Part shown: one piece after another, positions 3,185 through 47,845 of the stretch
Position numbering within the stretch: the stretch's first letter is position 1
How the letters are laid out: every line of letters begins with the position of its first letter
NCBI GenBank assembly: GCA_040390045.1
Contig: JAZJZC010000001.1
Span: forward strand, 172,005-236,004
DNA length: 64,000 nt
Origin: Patescibacteria group bacterium
GTDB taxonomy: Bacteria > Patescibacteriota > Minisyncoccia > Phycocordibacterales > SIBU01
Direction of reading: 5' to 3'
Translations under genes and position numbers: made by a program
Notes under the pieces: generated by a model
What the model saw: the letters and a program-made list of their open reading frames with translations, nothing else
Told to the model about the DNA's origin: nothing
The model's database searches: none

Positions 3185-5056
3185 TTATCCGTGCAACCCG
3201 ATCTGCAACTCGAAAAGCCTCCGATATTCTCCGCCAGAAATTTTCAAAAGTTCGTCGTGATTGCCGTTTTCAATCAGTTTCCCCTCTTTGAAAACTAAAA
3301 TCTTGTTGGCTTTTCGTACAGTACTCAAGCGATGCGCGATGATAAACGTAGTTTTGTCTTTCATCAAGACATCGAGTGAGTCGGTAATAATTTTCTCAGA
3401 CCCCGCATCAAGCGCGGCGGTTGGCTCATCGAGGATTAAAATTCGAGGATTACGCAAGATGGCGCGAGCGATGGCCACACGCTGTTTCTGACCAACAGAT
3501 AATTTAATTCCCCGCTGTCCCACCATCTGATTCCACTTGTCCGGAAATTTCTGAATGAAATCAAGGGCATGAGCTCGCTTGGCGGCGGCTTCCATCTGCT
3601 CGTTTGTCGCGTGGAAATTGCCGTACTTAATATTAGTTTTGATCGTATCGTTAAATAAAACAACTTCCTGCGGCACAACCGCGATTTGCGAACGATACGA
3701 ATACAGATCGACAGCGTCAATCGATACACCGTCGATTGTGACTTTTCCCTCTGTAGGAAAATGATACGCAGACATGAGATCAATCAAGGTGCTTTTGCCG
3801 ACACCCGACTCTCCGACGAGCGCAATCACCTCACCTGCTTGTACTTTGAAAGAAATGTCCGTGAGTACCGGTTTGCCATTTTCATACTGAAATGAGACGT
3901 GATCAAAAACAATATCTCCACGAACCGCGAACGGCTTTGATCCCGCCGGGTGATAATTTTCTGTCGGCAGGGCTAAAATCTTTTCCGTTTCTTGAATATT
4001 GATAACGCCGTTGTGAATTGTCTGCCAATTGCGCGCAAGTGTCATGAACGGCCCGAAGATCATGGCGGCGTAGGCGTTAAAGGCCAACAGTTCTCCGATC
4101 GTCATCGTGCCTTGGTGGATGTAGTAGATTGAAAAAAGAAAAATTAAAATTTGAGTGATAAGAATAATAACGCGCTGATACAAATTGAGTCCGCTCCATG
4201 CTTTTGTCAGCCGCATCCACAATGGAAGTGCCACCCGTGCGTTCTCGGCCATTTTGTTTTTTTCATATTCCTCGGCCGTCGCTTGTTTGATCGCCATGGT
4301 GTTATCGATCATTTCATAGGCATCGCCCCAAATGACATTGAATACTTTGTCATAATATTCTTTTTGATACTGACTCAAGGGTTGCACTTTTTTAGCAATA
4401 ATAGCGGCGTAGAGCATGAGTCCCACCAAAAGAAACGCGGCCAAAACTGGTTTCAAAATAAAACCAATCACAAGCGCGATCACAATACTCAAAAGTTGCG
4501 GCGCCAAATCAATCACTACTCGGCCGGCAATAGTCTCGAGCGATCCGGCCGCATTATTTATTTTATTTCCAATCTCGCCAATTTTGTTGGTCTTATGAAA
4601 ACTCATCGGTAAATTAACCAGGAAACTAAAACCTTTGGCCATGTAGTCGAGCCAAATATAATTGGAAAGATATTCACTCTTGATTTGAATTCGCCAGTCT
4701 ATCGTTGAGGTAATCAATTGAACAGTCGCCCAAAGAATAAGAAGCGCAACGTAGAGCGGTAAAACAGCGCCAGAAATAGTTACCACACCGGGCGTGATGA
4801 TCGCGTCAAAAAATCGACCAGCAATGTATGGCACAATACCGTTGCCGATTGCGGATAAAATACCGATGATACTGAGGATAATGATATCTTTGCGATAACT
4901 GGCGAGATATTTGAAAAGTACTTTAAATCCTGTGTACAGACTCTGTGCGGTAATTTTATCCTGTGGTTCTTTTGATTCTTCTTTTTTTTCAGATTCAGTC
5001 TCGGACTCTTTTGGCTCAACCACCACCTCTTCAGTTGTAGTATTTTGATTTTCCAT
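3185..5056 (-). CDS. ABC exporter, fused permease/ATP-binding protein (MsbA-like)
   Basis: Six-TM N-terminal domain; Walker A GESGVGKST; signature LSVGQKQRVAIARA; Walker B ILILDEPTAALD. Confidence 0.85.
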   Translation of the reverse strand: MENQNTTTEEVVVEPKESETESEKKEESKEPQDKITAQSLYTGFKVLFKYLASYRKDIIILSIIGILSAIGNGIVPYIAGRFFDAIITPGVVTISGAVLPLYVALLILWATVQLITSTIDWRIQIKSEYLSNYIWLDYMAKGFSFLVNLPMSFHKTNKIGEIGNKINNAAGSLETIAGRVVIDLAPQLLSIVIALVIGFILKPVLAAFLLVGLMLYAAIIAKKVQPLSQYQKEYYDKVFNVIWGDAYEMIDNTMAIKQATAEEYEKNKMAENARVALPLWMRLTKAWSGLNLYQRVIILITQILIFLFSIYYIHQGTMTIGELLAFNAYAAMIFGPFMTLARNWQTIHNGVINIQETEKILALPTENYHPAGSKPFAVRGDIVFDHVSFQYENGKPVLTDISFKVQAGEVIALVGESGVGKSTLIDLMSAYHFPTEGKVTIDGVSIDAVDLYSYRSQIAVVPQEVVLFNDTIKTNIKYGNFHATNEQMEAAAKRAHALDFIQKFPDKWNQMVGQRGIKLSVGQKQRVAIARAILRNPRILILDEPTAALDAGSEKIITDSLDVLMKDKTTFIIAHRLSTVRKANKILVFKEGKLIENGNHDELLKISGGEYRRLFELQIGLHG

Positions 5057-8090: not shown

Positions 8091-8101
8091 TCTTAAAAAA
8101 T

Positions 8102-8494
8102 ATGCAAAAGAAAAAAGTAGAAGAAGGATCGGGTGCAATGAAATTAGGAATGATTGGCGTGGGTTTGGCCGGCCTTGCCGCTACCGCCTATTTTTTCCTC
8201 AGCCCAAAAGCTAAACAGCATCAGAAACATGCTAAGGCTTGGGCGATCAAAATGAAAGGCGATGTTATTGAAAAACTTGAACAAGCAAAAGAAGTCAGCG
8301 AACCAGTCTACCGTGAAATTATCGATTCAGTTTCCAAAGATTATGAAAAAGGCATGAAAGCCACGAAGGAAGAAATTGCTGAATTGGCTGAGGATTTGAA
8401 AAAGCATTGGAATACTATCAGTGCCACGGCTATGAAAGCCAAAAAAGAAGTGGTGAAGGGTGCGGGACGAGTGGCAAAAAAGGCGGGGCTTTAG
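8102..8494 (+). CDS. YtxH-like membrane-anchored protein
   Basis: Gly-zipper TM (GMIGVGLAGLAATAYFFLSPKAKQ) followed by a charged helical region. Confidence 0.45.
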   Translation: MQKKKVEEGSGAMKLGMIGVGLAGLAATAYFFLSPKAKQHQKHAKAWAIKMKGDVIEKLEQAKEVSEPVYREIIDSVSKDYEKGMKATKEEIAELAEDLKKHWNTISATAMKAKKEVVKGAGRVAKKAGL

Positions 8495-8562
8495 TCCCGA
8501 CGCGAAGACGGTCGGGATCCCGAACTCCGAGTACGGAGCATCGGGATTTTAAAAATAAAAAA

Positions 8563-43431: not shown

Positions 43432-43914
43432 TTAGTTCAGAATCCAAATCGAGTAATTGAGATACGCCGCAAAACTGACCCATAGAATATAGGGCGCCAA
43501 AAGCCACGCGGTGGGTTTGGAGATTTTGACAAAGGTGATGATCGTGACAAGAATAGCGAGCCACAGGAAGACAATTTCAACCAGCGCGCCGCCCGGACTG
43601 TGCAGGCCGAAAAAAATAATCGACCAAAGCGTATTCAAGGTGAGCTGGCTAGCAAAGATACCGAGAGCGATTTTTACATCCCTGCGCTCCAATCCTTTTT
43701 TCCAAATCAAAAATGCCGCGACACCCATAAGAGCAAAGAGTGTAGTCCAGACCGGTGCAAACACCCACGCTGGAGGATTGAAGCTCGGTTTAATAATACC
43801 CGCATACCAGCCAGTGATGGAGGGAGTCGTAAAGACCGAACCGATGATGCCGGCAAGTTCTGAAATGACAATAGCGATGATAAGTTTGAATGTGTTGTTG
43901 AACTTCATAGACAC
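43432..43914 (-). CDS. tspO: TspO/MBR-family (tryptophan-rich sensory protein)
   Basis: Five TM helices with conserved Trp/Pro pattern (WYAGIIKPSFNPPAWVFAPVWTTLFALMG...LNTLWS...LAPYILWVSFAAYLN). Confidence 0.85.
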   Translation of the reverse strand: MSMKFNNTFKLIIAIVISELAGIIGSVFTTPSITGWYAGIIKPSFNPPAWVFAPVWTTLFALMGVAAFLIWKKGLERRDVKIALGIFASQLTLNTLWSIIFFGLHSPGGALVEIVFLWLAILVTIITFVKISKPTAWLLAPYILWVSFAAYLNYSIWILN

Positions 43915-43968
43915 ATTTTACTCTTTTTTATATTTATTGCGACGAGGGAGAAGGCGTATCAACCGTGA

Positions 43969-43998
43969 TACGCTTAAAAATCGGCTGGGGGACTTGGA
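43969..43998. repeat. 30-bp exact direct copy of the tRNA-Gln 3' end plus flank (tacgcttaaaaatcggctgggggacttgga); att-like
   Basis: Identical to 45442-45471, which spans the tRNA T-stem 3' half, acceptor 3' strand and 16 nt of trailer. Confidence 0.7.
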
Positions 43999-44251
43999 CC
44001 GCGGGTACGCTTATATCCTTCGACTTAAATTTTTCGTCAAAAATTAAACAATTTTTACGCCTTTGGTTCACGTCTTGTGTCCTTGCCAGACATCCGCGAC
44101 GTGAATTGAAGCTTTTTTATTATCGAGCACTTCGCTTGTAAAAAACATCAATTCGGCTGGGCTCCTCGGTCTCGTATATTTACCCATCAAGCCACATAAG
44201 GCTTTTTTGATTGATTTTATTCTACCATTTCGATGCTCCTCGGAACGAGAA

Positions 44252-44755
44252 TCAGCATTTGTCTCCGAGTATTTCTTGGTCCAACTTTTTTAACGCATCA
44301 AATATCTTCTGTATACGATGTGGAGTCGCTCGGACGCTCTTCCCGCCTTGAGTTATTTCTCTTTTAATAAAGCTATCAAGAAAGTTTTCTACAACTTTTA
44401 GGTGCTCCTTCCTTATATATCCAGCCTTGGCTTCAAACTCATTCTTTATATTTAGAATATGTAGCCTCCACTGATCGTTAATAGGATTAATGTCACCAAA
44501 CTTCTTTAAAATAGCACGGGTATCATCAATGGTCGGTTCAGCAGAAATTTCAGTTAATAATTCATCCCTATTAATATTTAAAGCTCTAATCATTAACAAA
44601 TTATAGGTTAAAGATCCATACAATCTTTCTTGAGTCAGATTTTTCCATTTTGCTTTTTCTTGAAAAGATTCCTTTATCCAGTTAAGTACTACCCCAACTA
44701 CCGTAGCAACTAGAGTAGAACTTATTATTGCCCAGAATATACTTTCAGTAATCAT
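44252..44755 (-). CDS. Hypothetical membrane-anchored coiled-coil protein (cassette gene 2)
   Basis: Single N-terminal TM (IFWAIISSTLVATVVGVVL) then ~140 aa helical soluble domain. Confidence 0.4.
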   Translation of the reverse strand: MITESIFWAIISSTLVATVVGVVLNWIKESFQEKAKWKNLTQERLYGSLTYNLLMIRALNINRDELLTEISAEPTIDDTRAILKKFGDINPINDQWRLHILNIKNEFEAKAGYIRKEHLKVVENFLDSFIKREITQGGKSVRATPHRIQKIFDALKKLDQEILGDKC

Positions 44756-44757
44756 GA

Positions 44758-45204
44758 TTATTTTTTGAAAACTAAAAAATATGGGAGTTTATCCATTCCT
44801 GTATAGGTAAACATTTCATAATTTGCTCTACGGGCAGTTTCAGAAAGACGATAGTTGGAGAGATTCTTTTTTGGAACAAAGGGATAAAACCTTACCTCTT
44901 GTTTTGTCTCCCCTTTTTCTGACCATTTGAAATTTAAAAATAGAGGCGGGGTCATATAACCAGACTTTAAAACCTTATTCATTATCTGCCACCCAGCACC
45001 AAAGACTACGGATTTAGGTTTACTTTGATTTGTTTTGACTTGTGCTCGGAAAGAGCAACCCGTGCACTGAACATCGTACAAAGGATAATTCGGTGGTAAT
45101 TTCATCAAACTTTTTCCGCAATTTGGACACGGAACAAGTTCGACAATTTCTTGTTCTCCTGAGTTTCCTGATTCTTTGTTAGTTATTTTCTTCATAGATT
45201 TCAA
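44758..45204 (-). CDS. Hypothetical zinc-ribbon protein (cassette gene 1)
   Basis: CPNCG...CTGC four-Cys ribbon at residues ~25-50, then ~95 aa domain of unknown fold; 2-bp gap to downstream gene. Confidence 0.4.
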   Translation of the reverse strand: MKSMKKITNKESGNSGEQEIVELVPCPNCGKSLMKLPPNYPLYDVQCTGCSFRAQVKTNQSKPKSVVFGAGWQIMNKVLKSGYMTPPLFLNFKWSEKGETKQEVRFYPFVPKKNLSNYRLSETARRANYEMFTYTGMDKLPYFLVFKK

Positions 45205-45233
45205 TGCTCTTCGGAGTCCGAACCTATCTCAAA

Positions 45234-45266
45234 CTGGCTGGGAACTTGGACCGCGAGTACGCGTAT
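45234..45266. repeat. Degenerate copy of the tRNA 3'-end/att-like repeat (ctggctgggaacttggaccgcgagtacgcgtat)
   Basis: ~28/32 identity to 43982-44014; a further weak copy near 44158-44180. Confidence 0.5.
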
Positions 45267-45457
45267 CGAAACTTACAGTTTCAGTACACCTTTCCCGTTT
45301 TTTCCTCATCTGAATGACTCAAAAACATGGGAGAAGGTCTTCGATTCCAGGACGAAAGTGCGTTTAGCACTTTCGTCCCCCATGACATTTTTATAGCAAT
45401 AAAACATGTCCGTCGAAATTTACTAATTTCGACGCGATTTTTACGCTTAAAAATCGG

Positions 45458-45528
45458 CTGGGGGACTTGGAATCGAACCAAAATTAACGGCTTCAAAGGC
45501 CGCTGTCCGACCATTAGACGATCCCCCA
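45458..45528 (-). tRNA. tRNA-Gln (anticodon UUG)
   Basis: Folded by hand: U1-A70 acceptor pair (typical of bacterial tRNA-Gln); D-stem gtct/ggac; anticodon stem gcggc/gccgt; loop cuUUGaa; T-arm tttgg-ttcgatt-ccaag; discriminator G; CCA not encoded. Confidence 0.75.
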
Positions 45529-45537
45529 ATGGCACTT

Positions 45538-46239
45538 CTAATCTCTAGAACTTAAATATACTACTACACCTTCTACCCATCCCGCAATCTTCCGATTGAG
45601 CGAAATACTTCTACTGACGATGACAGACAATACCCCTCGATAATCTTCTCCGACCCTCCTACGCTTAGTTTTTGGGTTATGTTTTTTAAAGTAAACCTTA
45701 AGTTTATCCTCTCGAAATTTGAGATTTTGCTTCCAATATTTTTTTGCGCTTTCTACATCAGCTTTCTCATGAATGAACAATTCAAAGCGTGTGTCTCCAT
45801 CAACAACCTGTAAATATTGGTGGATCCAATTCAAAAAAATCTTGTGAGCCTGTAAATCCATGTTGGTAAACTTCACAGGACAAGCAATCGCGTGCTCTTT
45901 TGATCCTTCAGCCCAATACAAAATAACCCCCGTTAACCAGAACGGGTCCCGAATCAGCGAAGCGACTTCTTGCCTTGCCGAATCTTTAATATCTTTTACT
46001 CTCCTAATTTTATTTCTCCGTACAGCATCAACACCCCTCAATCTGCCTGCAATTCTTTTTTCTGTAATAACTTGTTTTTGCTTTTTTGCCAACCCAACAT
46101 CACGGAGCCACAGCGAAATAGTAGACTTGGCAACCGGAATTTGTTTCAAAATTTCCGAATACGAAAGACCCTTTCTGCGCAGAGCAATAGTTTCTTCCTT
46201 GAGTTTTCCTTTTGTAAACATCGAACAATGATTATACAC
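45538..46239 (-). CDS. HTH-domain protein with LAGLIDADG-like endonuclease-type C-terminal domain (putative)
   Basis: N-terminal resolvase/sigma-70-r4-like HTH (RKGLSYSEILKQIPVAKSTISLWLRD); FWLTGVILYWAEGSK resembles a LAGLIDADG block; ends 10 bp from the tRNA 5' end. Confidence 0.35.
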   Translation of the reverse strand: MYNHCSMFTKGKLKEETIALRRKGLSYSEILKQIPVAKSTISLWLRDVGLAKKQKQVITEKRIAGRLRGVDAVRRNKIRRVKDIKDSARQEVASLIRDPFWLTGVILYWAEGSKEHAIACPVKFTNMDLQAHKIFLNWIHQYLQVVDGDTRFELFIHEKADVESAKKYWKQNLKFREDKLKVYFKKHNPKTKRRRVGEDYRGVLSVIVSRSISLNRKIAGWVEGVVVYLSSRD

Positions 46240-47310: not shown

Positions 47311-47482
47311 GAAAGGGCTACGTGGTTGGCCTATTTCTTTGTTGCTTCACGATTTTACTCCCGCAACGTATATGAATACGTTTTAGTCGCAAAATCGCTT
47401 GCGCCTCGAACTACATCCAACCCCGTAAGCCCTTTAGTATAACAGATTTGTTTGGGTAAAAAAAAGAACCCCGAGTTGGAGT

Positions 47483-47731
47483 TCAAGACAAAAATCTCAT
47501 GCAATCGCCGACGCGACTGGCCAACACACAGACACAGTTCACAAAGTGACCCAGTCTGGATATTTCCCGGCTGTCCAAGTCGGATGAATCGAACCACGCA
47601 TTCCGGCAACCATAGGTGCAAAAATGTCTCCACTGACCGTTTGGAAGGTTGAAATGGGTTCCGTGGTCGACGTCTTTTATGGCAATTCCGCAATTGTAAC
47701 AATAGAGTTTCAGCATAAACCTTGGCTTCAA
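47483..47731 (-). CDS. Possible small Cys-rich (zinc-ribbon-like) protein in a GC-rich intergenic island
   Basis: 82-aa ORF with CYNCG...CTYGC pairs; coding status uncertain. Confidence 0.25.
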   Translation of the reverse strand: MKPRFMLKLYCYNCGIAIKDVDHGTHFNLPNGQWRHFCTYGCRNAWFDSSDLDSREISRLGHFVNCVCVLASRVGDCMRFLS

Positions 47732-47794
47732 CGGTGGTTAAGGTACCGAAAACACTCGGGAGAGTATAGCAAAAAGGGGGTTAGACGCAAACGA

Positions 47795-47830
47795 GAAACC
47801 CCCGGCCGCGCGAAGCGCGGCCGGGGGTTT
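47795..47830. terminator. Bidirectional terminator (aaacccccggccgcgc.gaag.cgcggccgggggttt)
   Basis: 16-bp GC-rich stem with T/A runs on both sides; directly 3' of fba. Confidence 0.75.
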
Positions 47831-47845
47831 TCCTGAATCTTAAAT

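Follow-up and report, generated by a model that had tools for sequence, protein, structure and literature searches.

How does a small block of genes come to lie behind a tRNA gene, bracketed by copies of that tRNA's own 3' end, with no integrase gene beside it? The question is raised by a 1.5-kb interval downstream of tRNA-Gln(UUG) in the genome of a Patescibacteria group bacterium (GenBank assembly GCA_040390045.1, contig JAZJZC010000001.1, positions 172,005 to 236,004), which was analysed as a stretch of 64,000 nucleotides, called the window throughout. What lies behind this conserved tRNA gene varies between genomes, and the interval itself, an islet of foreign composition, has a GC content of 32-37% against 43-47% in its flanks; insertions recur here at one specific site, which makes the region a hotspot. 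Its repeated tRNA ends are parts of a structured, strongly covarying module of about 150 nt, and the main cargo is, by homology, a minimal DpnI-type (PF06044) nuclease domain. The islet is targeted to a tRNA but integrase-less, is bounded by a novel structured module and carries a new minimal variant of a known enzyme. An islet with defence-type cargo is in itself ordinary, whereas the module and the enzyme family are not.

Layout of the islet behind tRNA-Gln

The features of the islet, with the evidence for each, are as follows.

45456-45528, minus strand: intact tRNA-Gln(UUG), source of the repeated segment from the T-loop on (ARAGORN, ttg; Rfam RF00005 at 45458-45528, 57.9 bits)
45442-45471, minus strand: proximal copy of the perfect 30-bp direct repeat (repeat finding, local alignment)
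45442-45455: trailer of tRNA-Gln
45411-45434, minus strand: terminator-like hairpin of 10 bp in the spacer between the tRNA trailer and the module
45235-45383, minus strand: intact tRNA-tail module, ending in copy B and CCA (covariance model R1, 139 bits; covariation; folding z = -5.06)
45205-45234, minus strand: conserved leader (GTTTGAGATAGGTTCGGACTCCGAAGAGC...) between copy B and the nuclease gene (same leader in relatives)
44758-45204, minus strand: gene for a DpnI-family PD-(D/E)XK nuclease domain, 148 aa from TTG (PF06044, PADLOC, PDB profile, Foldseek, residue mapping)
44252-44755, minus strand: gene for an orphan protein with a transmembrane (TM) helix, 167 aa (open reading frame; family scans without match)
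about 44150-44250, minus strand: element C, a conserved intergenic element of ~90 nt (homology to the islet ends of loci L001 and L003)
43983-44100, minus strand: degenerate second module, ending in copy A (R1, 15.7 bits, E = 0.4; nhmmer; 89% identity to the arm of the module at copy B)
43969-43998, minus strand: copy A, the distal copy of the perfect 30-bp repeat (repeat finding, local alignment)
43432-43914: TspO gene, beyond copy A

Read in the sense of the tRNA, the order is therefore tRNA-Gln, trailer and hairpin, module, leader, DpnI-like gene, TM gene, element C, degenerate module with copy A, and TspO. As both an intact and a degenerate module are present, the cargo is flanked by two module-plus-tRNA-end units in direct orientation. 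A reading made from the letters and open reading frames (ORFs) alone, here the sequence-only reading, had placed tRNA-Gln(UUG) on the minus strand and two co-oriented, almost abutting genes behind it. Both tRNA searches bear out the former, and both cargo ORFs are present in the same orientation, 3 nt apart, with the likely start of the first at an ATG at 45195, as judged from the alignment of homologues, rather than at the TTG at 45204.

Among the loci compared below, L001-L080 are 80 species-level genome loci selected via the DpnI-like gene, and another set was selected via dnaX, independently of that gene.

A structured module that mimics the tRNA end

The repeated sequence, TACGCTTAAAAATCGGCTGGGGGACTTGGA, is a perfect 30-bp direct repeat at 43969-43998 and 45442-45471, and repeat finding and local alignment both recover the distal copy that had been described from the letters. 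It comprises the last T-loop base, the T-stem 3' strand, the acceptor 3' strand and the discriminator (14 nt of tRNA) with 16 nt of trailer, and an exact repeat of 30 nt within 64 kb is far beyond chance. The sequence-only reading had also placed at least two decayed copies of the same motif between these ends and taken the whole for a scar of repeated integration. The copy at 45240-45266 (copy B) is real, with 89% identity to 43988-44014 and a likeness that extends outside the tRNA-derived part; it is, however, no simple decayed scar but the 3' strand of a conserved structured module of ~150 nt.

About 175 nt from the tRNA trailer to copy B, together with copy B itself, recur as a unit after tRNA-Gln in three other loci (L132, L124 and L089), in each of which the module is present and the DpnI-like gene is not. 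Its 5' part, in tRNA sense, consists of an inverted copy of the acceptor 3' strand, a hairpin of variable sequence, and an inverted T-loop and T-stem, GGAAUCGAAG, which is the most conserved block of the module. Its 3' part consists of a 17-bp helix, the sequence GUACUG, a 5-6-bp hairpin with a UGUAA loop, a small CGCG-UACU-CGCG hairpin and the direct tRNA-end copy; the latter is made up of the T-stem 3' strand, the acceptor 3' strand and the discriminator, and its end is tRNA-like, CCA or CA.

The four sequences yield 34 pairs with RNAalifold, 20 of them with compensatory double changes, and 97% of the cells of the alignment are paired as against 79% in shuffles, while slid registers give 0-4 double-sided pairs. 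Covariance model R1 covers seven copies (41-150 bits), including three further independent ones, in L013 (94 bits), L131 (69 bits) and L145 (41 bits). Five of the seven lie behind tRNA-Gln, one behind tRNA-Arg (L145) and one distal to a pair formed by a DpnI-like gene and its partner (L013). The alignment of all seven copies was fitted to the model. Its paired cells make up 95% of the total (72% in shuffles), double-sided pairs number 23 out of 34 (12.4 +/- 2.2 in shuffles, at most 7 in slid registers), and double-sided changes are seen in 50 cells (16.2 in shuffles, at most 9 in slid registers). R1 additionally gives a weak match (15.7 bits, E = 0.4) that ends in copy A of the window, and nhmmer matches the 3' third of this degenerate module at E = 1e-5. 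For the window module, the folding z score is -5.06 in tRNA sense and -4.79 in antisense, and on the sense strand cells of the G:U type outnumber those of the A:C type by 11 to 2. Within 43900-45600, the tRNA alone reaches the Rfam threshold, with nothing else credible at E <= 10.

The copy in L145 lies 43 nt past tRNA-Arg(CCU), and its two terminal strands are mimics of this tRNA; one stretch of 19 nt, GATTCCTACTTGTGGCACA, is a direct copy. Thus, a conserved core occurs behind different tRNAs with its ends fitted to each. The genes downstream of the module copies are unrelated to one another, so that the module is no gene-specific leader. Its distribution among close relatives is patchy: it is found in L089 and the window and is missing from L088, L090, L091 and L094-96. 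No description of a structured module mimicking tRNA ends was found in the literature. The hairpin loop CUGUAAG had also been tried as the anticodon arm of a tRNA-Tyr, a candidate that was set aside, with no D-arm or T-arm that fits and no tRNA called by ARAGORN or Rfam; a real tRNA-Tyr is found in L094, 700 nt after tRNA-Gln.

Repeated tRNA ends elsewhere in the islet and in relatives

The second supposed decayed copy, near 44150-44174, is weak on its own (64-72% identity) but sits inside element C. The core of this element (44157-44248) has homologues in the distal islet ends of L001 (5146-5236) and L003 (5907-5997), which likewise hold a decayed tRNA end and trailer. Element C contains an extended -10-like sequence, TGGTAGAAT, a small hairpin and the decayed tRNA-end-like stretch, and it points towards the downstream genes; it may be a promoter. 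The partial duplication of flanking sequence that had been noticed from the letters also stands, as a 22-nt box present in the window near 44227 and again near 45208, and found once more at cassette boundaries in L003 and L001. The leader GTTTGAGATAGGTTCGGACTCCGAAGAGC comes after an intact tRNA-Gln in L015, L086 and L130, and ahead of DpnI-like or TM genes in L001, L003, L014, L016 and L081.

Partial duplications of tRNA-Gln are found in several relatives, with left ends mostly at tRNA positions 54-58 and deeper (18, 44) in two loci; the tRNA-end copies near the DpnI-like gene break off at positions 54-58. The repeated-integration scar that was read from the letters is thus upheld in so far as the site is an insertion hotspot whose repeats break in the T-loop, and given up in so far as copy B is no plain scar. 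Partial duplications far longer than those of other loci lie between the intact tRNA and the DpnI-like gene in two loci: in L012 these cover tRNA positions 18-72 (3618-3672) and 54-72 (3853-3871), and in L014 positions 44-72 (525-553). In three loci (L002 ~3862-3990, L003 ~3402-3520 and L012 ~3473-3600), 15-22 nt upstream of tRNA-Gln are complementary to the trailer past the acceptor stem, and this complementarity would extend the acceptor stem into a long stem in the precursor. Tandem integration, unequal crossover and composite excision were each worked through by hand as histories of copies A, B and C, and none fits every junction.

The insertion hotspot and the search for a recombinase

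Of the 80 loci selected for the DpnI-like gene, 11 have a co-oriented tRNA-Gln no more than 2 kb upstream of it, and 5 a tRNA-Ser. The linkage of dnaX to tRNA-Gln that follows it is kept down to 38% dnaX identity, and among the dnaX-anchored loci the 26 with at least 1.5 kb after tRNA-Gln were scored: neither the DpnI-like gene nor the TM gene is present in any of them (0/26), and no dnaX-anchored locus has homologues of TspO, cupin or DUF1801. In the closest relative, L091, synteny runs through six upstream genes, dnaX, a helix-turn-helix (HTH) gene (75%) and tRNA-Gln, with nothing shared after it; the content downstream of tRNA-Gln differs in every genome compared. The comparison of relatives thus shows synteny that ends at the tRNA and a cassette missing from all scored loci, but a strictly empty site, with tRNA-Gln followed directly by TspO, was not found among the dnaX-anchored loci.

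Several relatives have other occupants at the same site. A large serine recombinase (LSR) gene abuts tRNA-Gln in L088 (10400-11971, minus), L102 (8195-9814, minus) and L098 (4258-5442, minus), and these ORFs run antisense through the whole tRNA, so that the C-termini of the proteins are encoded by its complement. Resolvase, Recombinase and Zn_ribbon_recom domains confirm the LSR of L088, and an abortive-infection gene, AIPR, comes next. Only a fragment of an LSR (8093-8500, minus) is left in L094, together with an MNT/HepT pair, and the trailer there is nearly identical to that of L098. The cargo at the site is AbiEii in L095 and DUF5677 in L096.

The sequence-only reading had reported no integrase between the repeats, and this holds there as in the whole window: neither an LSR profile nor a tyrosine-recombinase profile (made from three XerD-like ORFs of the loci) matches any ORF of at least 60 aa, in screens that covered these two classes, other recombinase and transposase classes not having been screened. 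Searches with phmmer, using the L088 LSR and an E. coli XerD sequence, likewise return nothing in the window. An LSR remnant in the islet was considered and dropped, as tblastn with the three LSRs and the L094 fragment matched only the antisense of the tRNA itself. XerD-like genes occur near the DpnI-like gene in L053, L058 and L059, with no tRNA-end repeats around them, and that of L058 neighbours trx/trxB; they may be housekeeping Xer genes and for this reason were not used as evidence for an element.

A minimal DpnI-type nuclease domain as cargo

The first cargo protein had been described from the letters as a four-Cys zinc-ribbon protein of no recognisable family, and its partner as equally unplaceable; the latter remains without a family match, but the former belongs to the DpnI family. 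It matches PF06044 at 38 bits (curated cutoff 26.7) over residues 20-133, corresponding to profile positions 28-144 of 183, and all close homologues carry the same domain. PADLOC assigns it to mREase_II, a single-gene model, at 1.5e-6. A profile of 24 family members run against the PDB has DpnI (4esj/4kyw) as its sole significant sequence match. An AlphaFold model of moderate quality (pLDDT 68.6, pTM 0.64) retrieves DpnI first with Foldseek (4kyw_A, E = 1.1e-5, prob 1.00, TMq 0.55; and 4esj), followed by Hjc and other PD-(D/E)XK nucleases.

DpnI is well characterised (PMC3424567, PMC4117772), and the residues of its nuclease domain, which were defined by experiment, can be followed one by one. 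Its catalytic residues are E25, D53, E64 and K66, and its four-Cys zinc site flanks D53 (PMC3424567, PMC4117772), with two Cys before the Asp of the 'PD' and two between this Asp and the EXK (PMC3424567); its methyl pocket consists of L129, R135 and W138 (PMC3424567, PMC4117772), and the position of W138 is Tyr or His in Neisseria homologues (PMC4117772). In the family alignment, E17, D44 and K57, the equivalents of E25, D53 and K66, are invariant, as are C26, C29, C47 and C50, the placement of which matches the DpnI Cys4 site. The four Cys are thus a structural zinc site of the nuclease and no sensor ribbon. Also invariant are L120, R126 and Y129, which align with L129, R135 and W138, the Tyr being the residue seen in Neisseria. 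Among the guanine-contact positions (DpnI N48 and R126), N39 is mostly retained, and the equivalent of R126 is N or K; at a further position, G140 is replaced by M. R.DpnI, a type IIM, Gm6ATC-dependent restriction endonuclease of what PF06044 calls the 'Dam-replacing family', is the best match in both sequence and fold, and shares with the window protein the PD-(D/E)XK domain and the Cys4 site. It differs in having 254 aa against 148, in its winged-helix methyl-reader domain, and in its E64, which corresponds to an invariant Gln here. A Gln or Asn in place of the catalytic Glu is found in the active restriction enzymes HinP1I (SD..QxK) and MspI (D..NxK).

The window protein falls in a separate and very tightly conserved clade of Patescibacteria and DPANN. 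The family comprises more than 1,300 clusters of proteins of 143-148 aa that are 73-94% identical across Patescibacteria classes, some labelled as Omnitrophota or DPANN archaea, and we found no description in the literature of a short DpnI-like family in Patescibacteria. Carriage of the gene by phages or viruses was considered and dropped, there being no match in IMG/VR or among GenBank phages. The protein has no signal peptide.

In the promoters of 17 of 78 family members two GATC sites lie 10-11 nt apart, where 0.6 such cases are expected, so that many members of the clade have a double-GATC promoter. The pair is carried by a conserved promoter-like motif, TTGC(A/T)C..GATC-N6-7-TGATCTAAT, in the ~45 nt before the ATG of the DpnI-like gene, and is found in L010, L019, L022, L036-38, L042, L044, L045, L060, L061, L065, L070, L073, L076, L078 and L079; the gene of the window is without it. 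One possibility is that the motif serves a GATC-reading protein as an operator for autoregulation or for sensing methylation. In the window, GATC has an observed-to-expected ratio of 0.87, i.e., it is not depleted, and no adenine methyltransferase motif was found. On the strength of methyl-pocket and guanine-contact residues that are in part conserved, of GATC that is not depleted and an adenine methyltransferase motif that is missing in the window, and of double-GATC promoters in the family, the protein is predicted to be a methyladenine-dependent (Gm6ATC-type) restriction endonuclease with a role in defence. If so, this could be the most compact of the methyladenine-dependent restriction enzymes, one that has QxK as its natural active site and whose family bears GATC in its promoters. 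The cargo protein is one of a very large family of almost invariant DpnI-type domains (~145 aa) from Patescibacteria and DPANN, and this makes it a tractable target for enzymology and a possible tool enzyme.

The membrane protein and the genes next to the nuclease

A single TM helix lies at the N-terminus of the 167-aa TM protein, the rest of which is helical throughout. Searches of Pfam, NCBIfam, PADLOC and PHROG returned no match, and the AlphaFold model (pLDDT 49) is too poor for a fold search. Only eleven homologues were found, against more than 1,300 for the nuclease, and a hidden Markov model of these 11 finds no remote relatives among the ORFs of the other loci. The TM gene adjoins the DpnI-like gene elsewhere only in L081-84, where there is no tRNA and the neighbourhood is of a defence type, with an Eco57I-type methyltransferase, an SNF2/PLD helicase and an HTH gene. 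In three further loci, L085-87, no DpnI-like gene is present and the TM gene stands directly behind the tRNA-Gln 3' end and the same leader. These three are independent assemblies, each with a contig that begins inside the tRNA-Gln/leader region, at most a few tens of bases ahead of the TM gene, and the breaks are consistent with a repeat or a strain-variable junction.

Across the 80 loci, the gene after the DpnI-like gene is nearly always co-oriented and close by, but different almost everywhere. In most of them a co-oriented ORF begins within ~30 nt of the DpnI-like stop codon, be it a housekeeping or a defence gene. The Pfam domains of these neighbours include the defence-related AbiTii, DUF2726, MrcB_N and SocA, and also Fic_N, deaminases, Tag glycosylase, AhpC, SpoU methylase, a glycosyltransferase and a histidine phosphatase. 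The pattern is as if a DpnI-like gene of ~0.5 kb, with its promoter, inserted just upstream of other genes. As the partner is hypervariable across the family, the two genes of the islet form no conserved sensor/effector system, and the TM gene is an independent orphan cassette. The pairing of a sensor-like zinc-ribbon protein with a membrane effector, which had been proposed from the letters, is not supported.

Mechanism and competing explanations

tRNA genes are classic landing sites of integrative elements, and to our knowledge the known elements that target them bring their own integrase. The reading favoured here, held with about even confidence, is that of a horizontally acquired, module-bounded islet at tRNA-Gln without an integrase of its own, with repeats generated by recombination within the 3' segment of the tRNA and a minimal m6A-dependent restriction nuclease as its cargo. 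The tRNA-end repeats would arise by site-specific recombination inside the segment from the T-loop to the 3' end, at a site that is also used by LSR elements in relatives, with a recombinase supplied in trans or since lost. The travelling partner of the repeats would be the module rather than an integrase gene. As the closing stem of the module reproduces both strands of the 3' part of the target tRNA, it is probably in the form of a folded single strand that the module presents this site or recognises it for recombination. Two modules could then bracket and move cargo, and the nuclease carried in this way would cut Dam-methylated (Gm6ATC-type) foreign DNA in a host that would itself be without GATC methylation. 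In a bolder form, which is unlikely on present evidence, the module would be a non-autonomous, structure-dependent mobile unit of a new kind, a folded single strand of DNA or RNA, the stem of which, retargetable from tRNA-Gln to tRNA-Arg, programmes insertion, and pairs of which, in direct orientation, move cargo in an integron-like manner in ultra-small bacteria with no linked integrase. Should the module be mobile, it would point to tRNA genes being targeted by structure or by a guide, and to a simple way by which defence genes travel in the genome-reduced Patescibacteria, the mobile elements of which are poorly known. The repeated tRNA ends are in any case part of a small, covarying, folded module that holds no protein gene.

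Several findings weigh against the favoured reading. The DpnI-like gene directly follows an intact tRNA in L015, L002 and L006, and the synteny of dnaX, tRNA-Gln and DpnI recurs in six species genomes (6/80 loci), so that some of this layout may date back further and have come down by vertical inheritance rather than by recent insertion. The screens for LSR and tyrosine recombinases find none in the window and no remnant in the islet. The perfect copy A adjoins a strongly decayed module, which gene conversion would fit as well as a recent integration. On the side of the enzyme, the structural model is of moderate quality only, the catalytic E64 of DpnI is an invariant Q55 (a D..QxK motif), and the protein stops at residue 148, without the C-terminal winged-helix domain that reads Gm6ATC.

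Two other accounts of the repeats compete with the favoured reading, and both are held to be improbable, to a like degree. In one, the islet is what decay has left of one or several elements that brought an integrase (tyrosine or LSR) to tRNA-Gln and then lost it, and the module is a mere conserved attP arm region whose structure plays no part. The span of the direct repeats from T-loop to 3' end agrees with this, as do the LSR elements at the same tRNA in L088, L102 and L098, the fragment in L094, which shows decay in place, and the XerD-like genes close to the DpnI-like gene in L053, L058 and L059; yet the LSR-bearing loci have no module, and no recombinase lies beside any of its seven copies. 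Moreover, protein-binding arm sites do not predict compensatory changes in four helices, nor is an inverted tRNA-end copy ~100 nt from the direct one, retargeted together with it from tRNA-Gln to tRNA-Arg, to be expected of them. In the other account, the module is a gene for a small tRNA-like RNA, co-transcribed with the tRNA or made beside it and matched to it by gene conversion or by shared processing enzymes; the repeats would belong to this gene and be no scars of recombination, and the cassette came to lie between two of them after a local duplication. Here the strong covariation and fold stability, the excess of G:U over A:C cells (11 to 2) on the tRNA-sense strand, the tRNA-like end of discriminator and CCA or CA, the unrelated downstream genes, which exclude a gene-specific leader, and the decay beside a perfect 30-bp copy, such as gene conversion would give, are all in agreement. 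Against this stand the lack of an Rfam family match, the patchy presence among close relatives (L089 and the window, as opposed to L088, L090, L091 and L094-96), the terminator-like hairpin that separates tRNA and module in the window, and the antisense strand, which folds nearly as well (z = -4.79); an RNA gene alone also does not explain both orientations of the local tRNA end behind two different tRNAs.

The cargo, too, admits of other interpretations. The protein may be a GATC-binding regulator or non-cleaving reader, or else a nucleotide-scavenging nuclease that degrades methylated host DNA for an episymbiont, both of which we regard as quite unlikely. The invariant Gln at the catalytic Glu position, the conserved double-GATC motif in the family's own promoters and the 73-94% identity across Patescibacteria classes and DPANN speak for such roles, and for epibionts it has been suggested that restriction enzymes serve to scavenge nucleotides (PMC12455944); against them, the remaining catalytic residues and the methyl-pocket positions L120, R126 and Y129 are invariant, Gln or Asn stands at the catalytic Glu position in the active enzymes HinP1I and MspI, the signal peptide is missing and the gene lies in variable, defence-rich regions. 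A dedicated anti-phage or abortive-infection pair of zinc-ribbon sensor and membrane effector, as first conceived, is the least probable of these alternatives. The genes do lie 3 nt apart, the pair recurs in the defence-type neighbourhood of L081-84, and other partners of DpnI-like genes are defence-related (AbiTii, DUF2726, MrcB_N, SocA), but the four Cys form a DpnI-type structural zinc site (PMC3424567), 11 TM homologues stand against more than 1,300 nuclease homologues, the partners are hypervariable and often housekeeping genes, the TM gene occurs behind the same leader without the nuclease gene (L085-87), and the TM protein has no PADLOC match. Searches for two-gene anti-phage or abortive-infection systems in PADLOC give no joint match, the nuclease alone matching (mREase_II).

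Relation to known systems

The islet shares with integrative elements that target tRNA genes the direct repeats from the T-loop to past the 3' end, a cargo of atypical GC content, the break of synteny at the tRNA, variable occupancy of the site, and tandem or successive insertions. It differs from them in that neither islet nor window has an LSR or tyrosine integrase match, in that the unit is 1.5 kb and, in relatives, goes down to ~190 nt without cargo, and in having an inverted tRNA-end copy and a covarying structured core. The LSR elements of L088, L102 and L098 target the same tRNA-Gln from the same side, with defence cargo (AIPR), but encode their own recombinase and have no module and no tRNA-end repeat detectable in the available sequence. 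Genomic islands and restriction-modification cargo are known in Patescibacteria (PMC12455944), in an account that makes no mention of tRNA sites, integrases or DpnI.

A parallel, amounting to resemblance only, might be struck with the integron attC site and the attP site of CTX-phi (XerCD): in both, structure is conserved over sequence and a stem re-creates a duplex site, and small, promoter-poor cassettes stand in one orientation beside a fixed chromosomal site. In contrast to these systems, the islet has no attI and no integron integrase (the window has no tyrosine recombinase match), its site is a tRNA gene, and the module is larger and, unlike attC, multi-branched and derived from a tRNA. 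Miniature inverted-repeat transposable elements (MITEs), the bridge RNA of IS110 and the omega RNA of IS605 resemble the module in being structured and non-coding at ~150 nt, and as in such systems its ends track the target, from tRNA-Gln to tRNA-Arg. It departs from them in having no cognate transposase or recombinase nearby, no Rfam match, and repeats that far exceed the usual target-site duplications.

Further features of the neighbourhood

Upstream of the tRNA, a gap of ~535 nt (47311-47845) separates dnaX from a class II aldolase gene and holds only short overlapping ORFs, with no Rfam match at gathering thresholds. Between dnaX and tRNA-Gln, the window has a 233-aa ORF (45538-46239, minus) with an N-terminal HTH and an 'LYWAEGSK' motif, for which no significant family match was found. 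Its presence is uncorrelated with the module or the cassette, and it occupies the same position in L091 (75%) and in L099, L113, L116 and L127 (39-43%).

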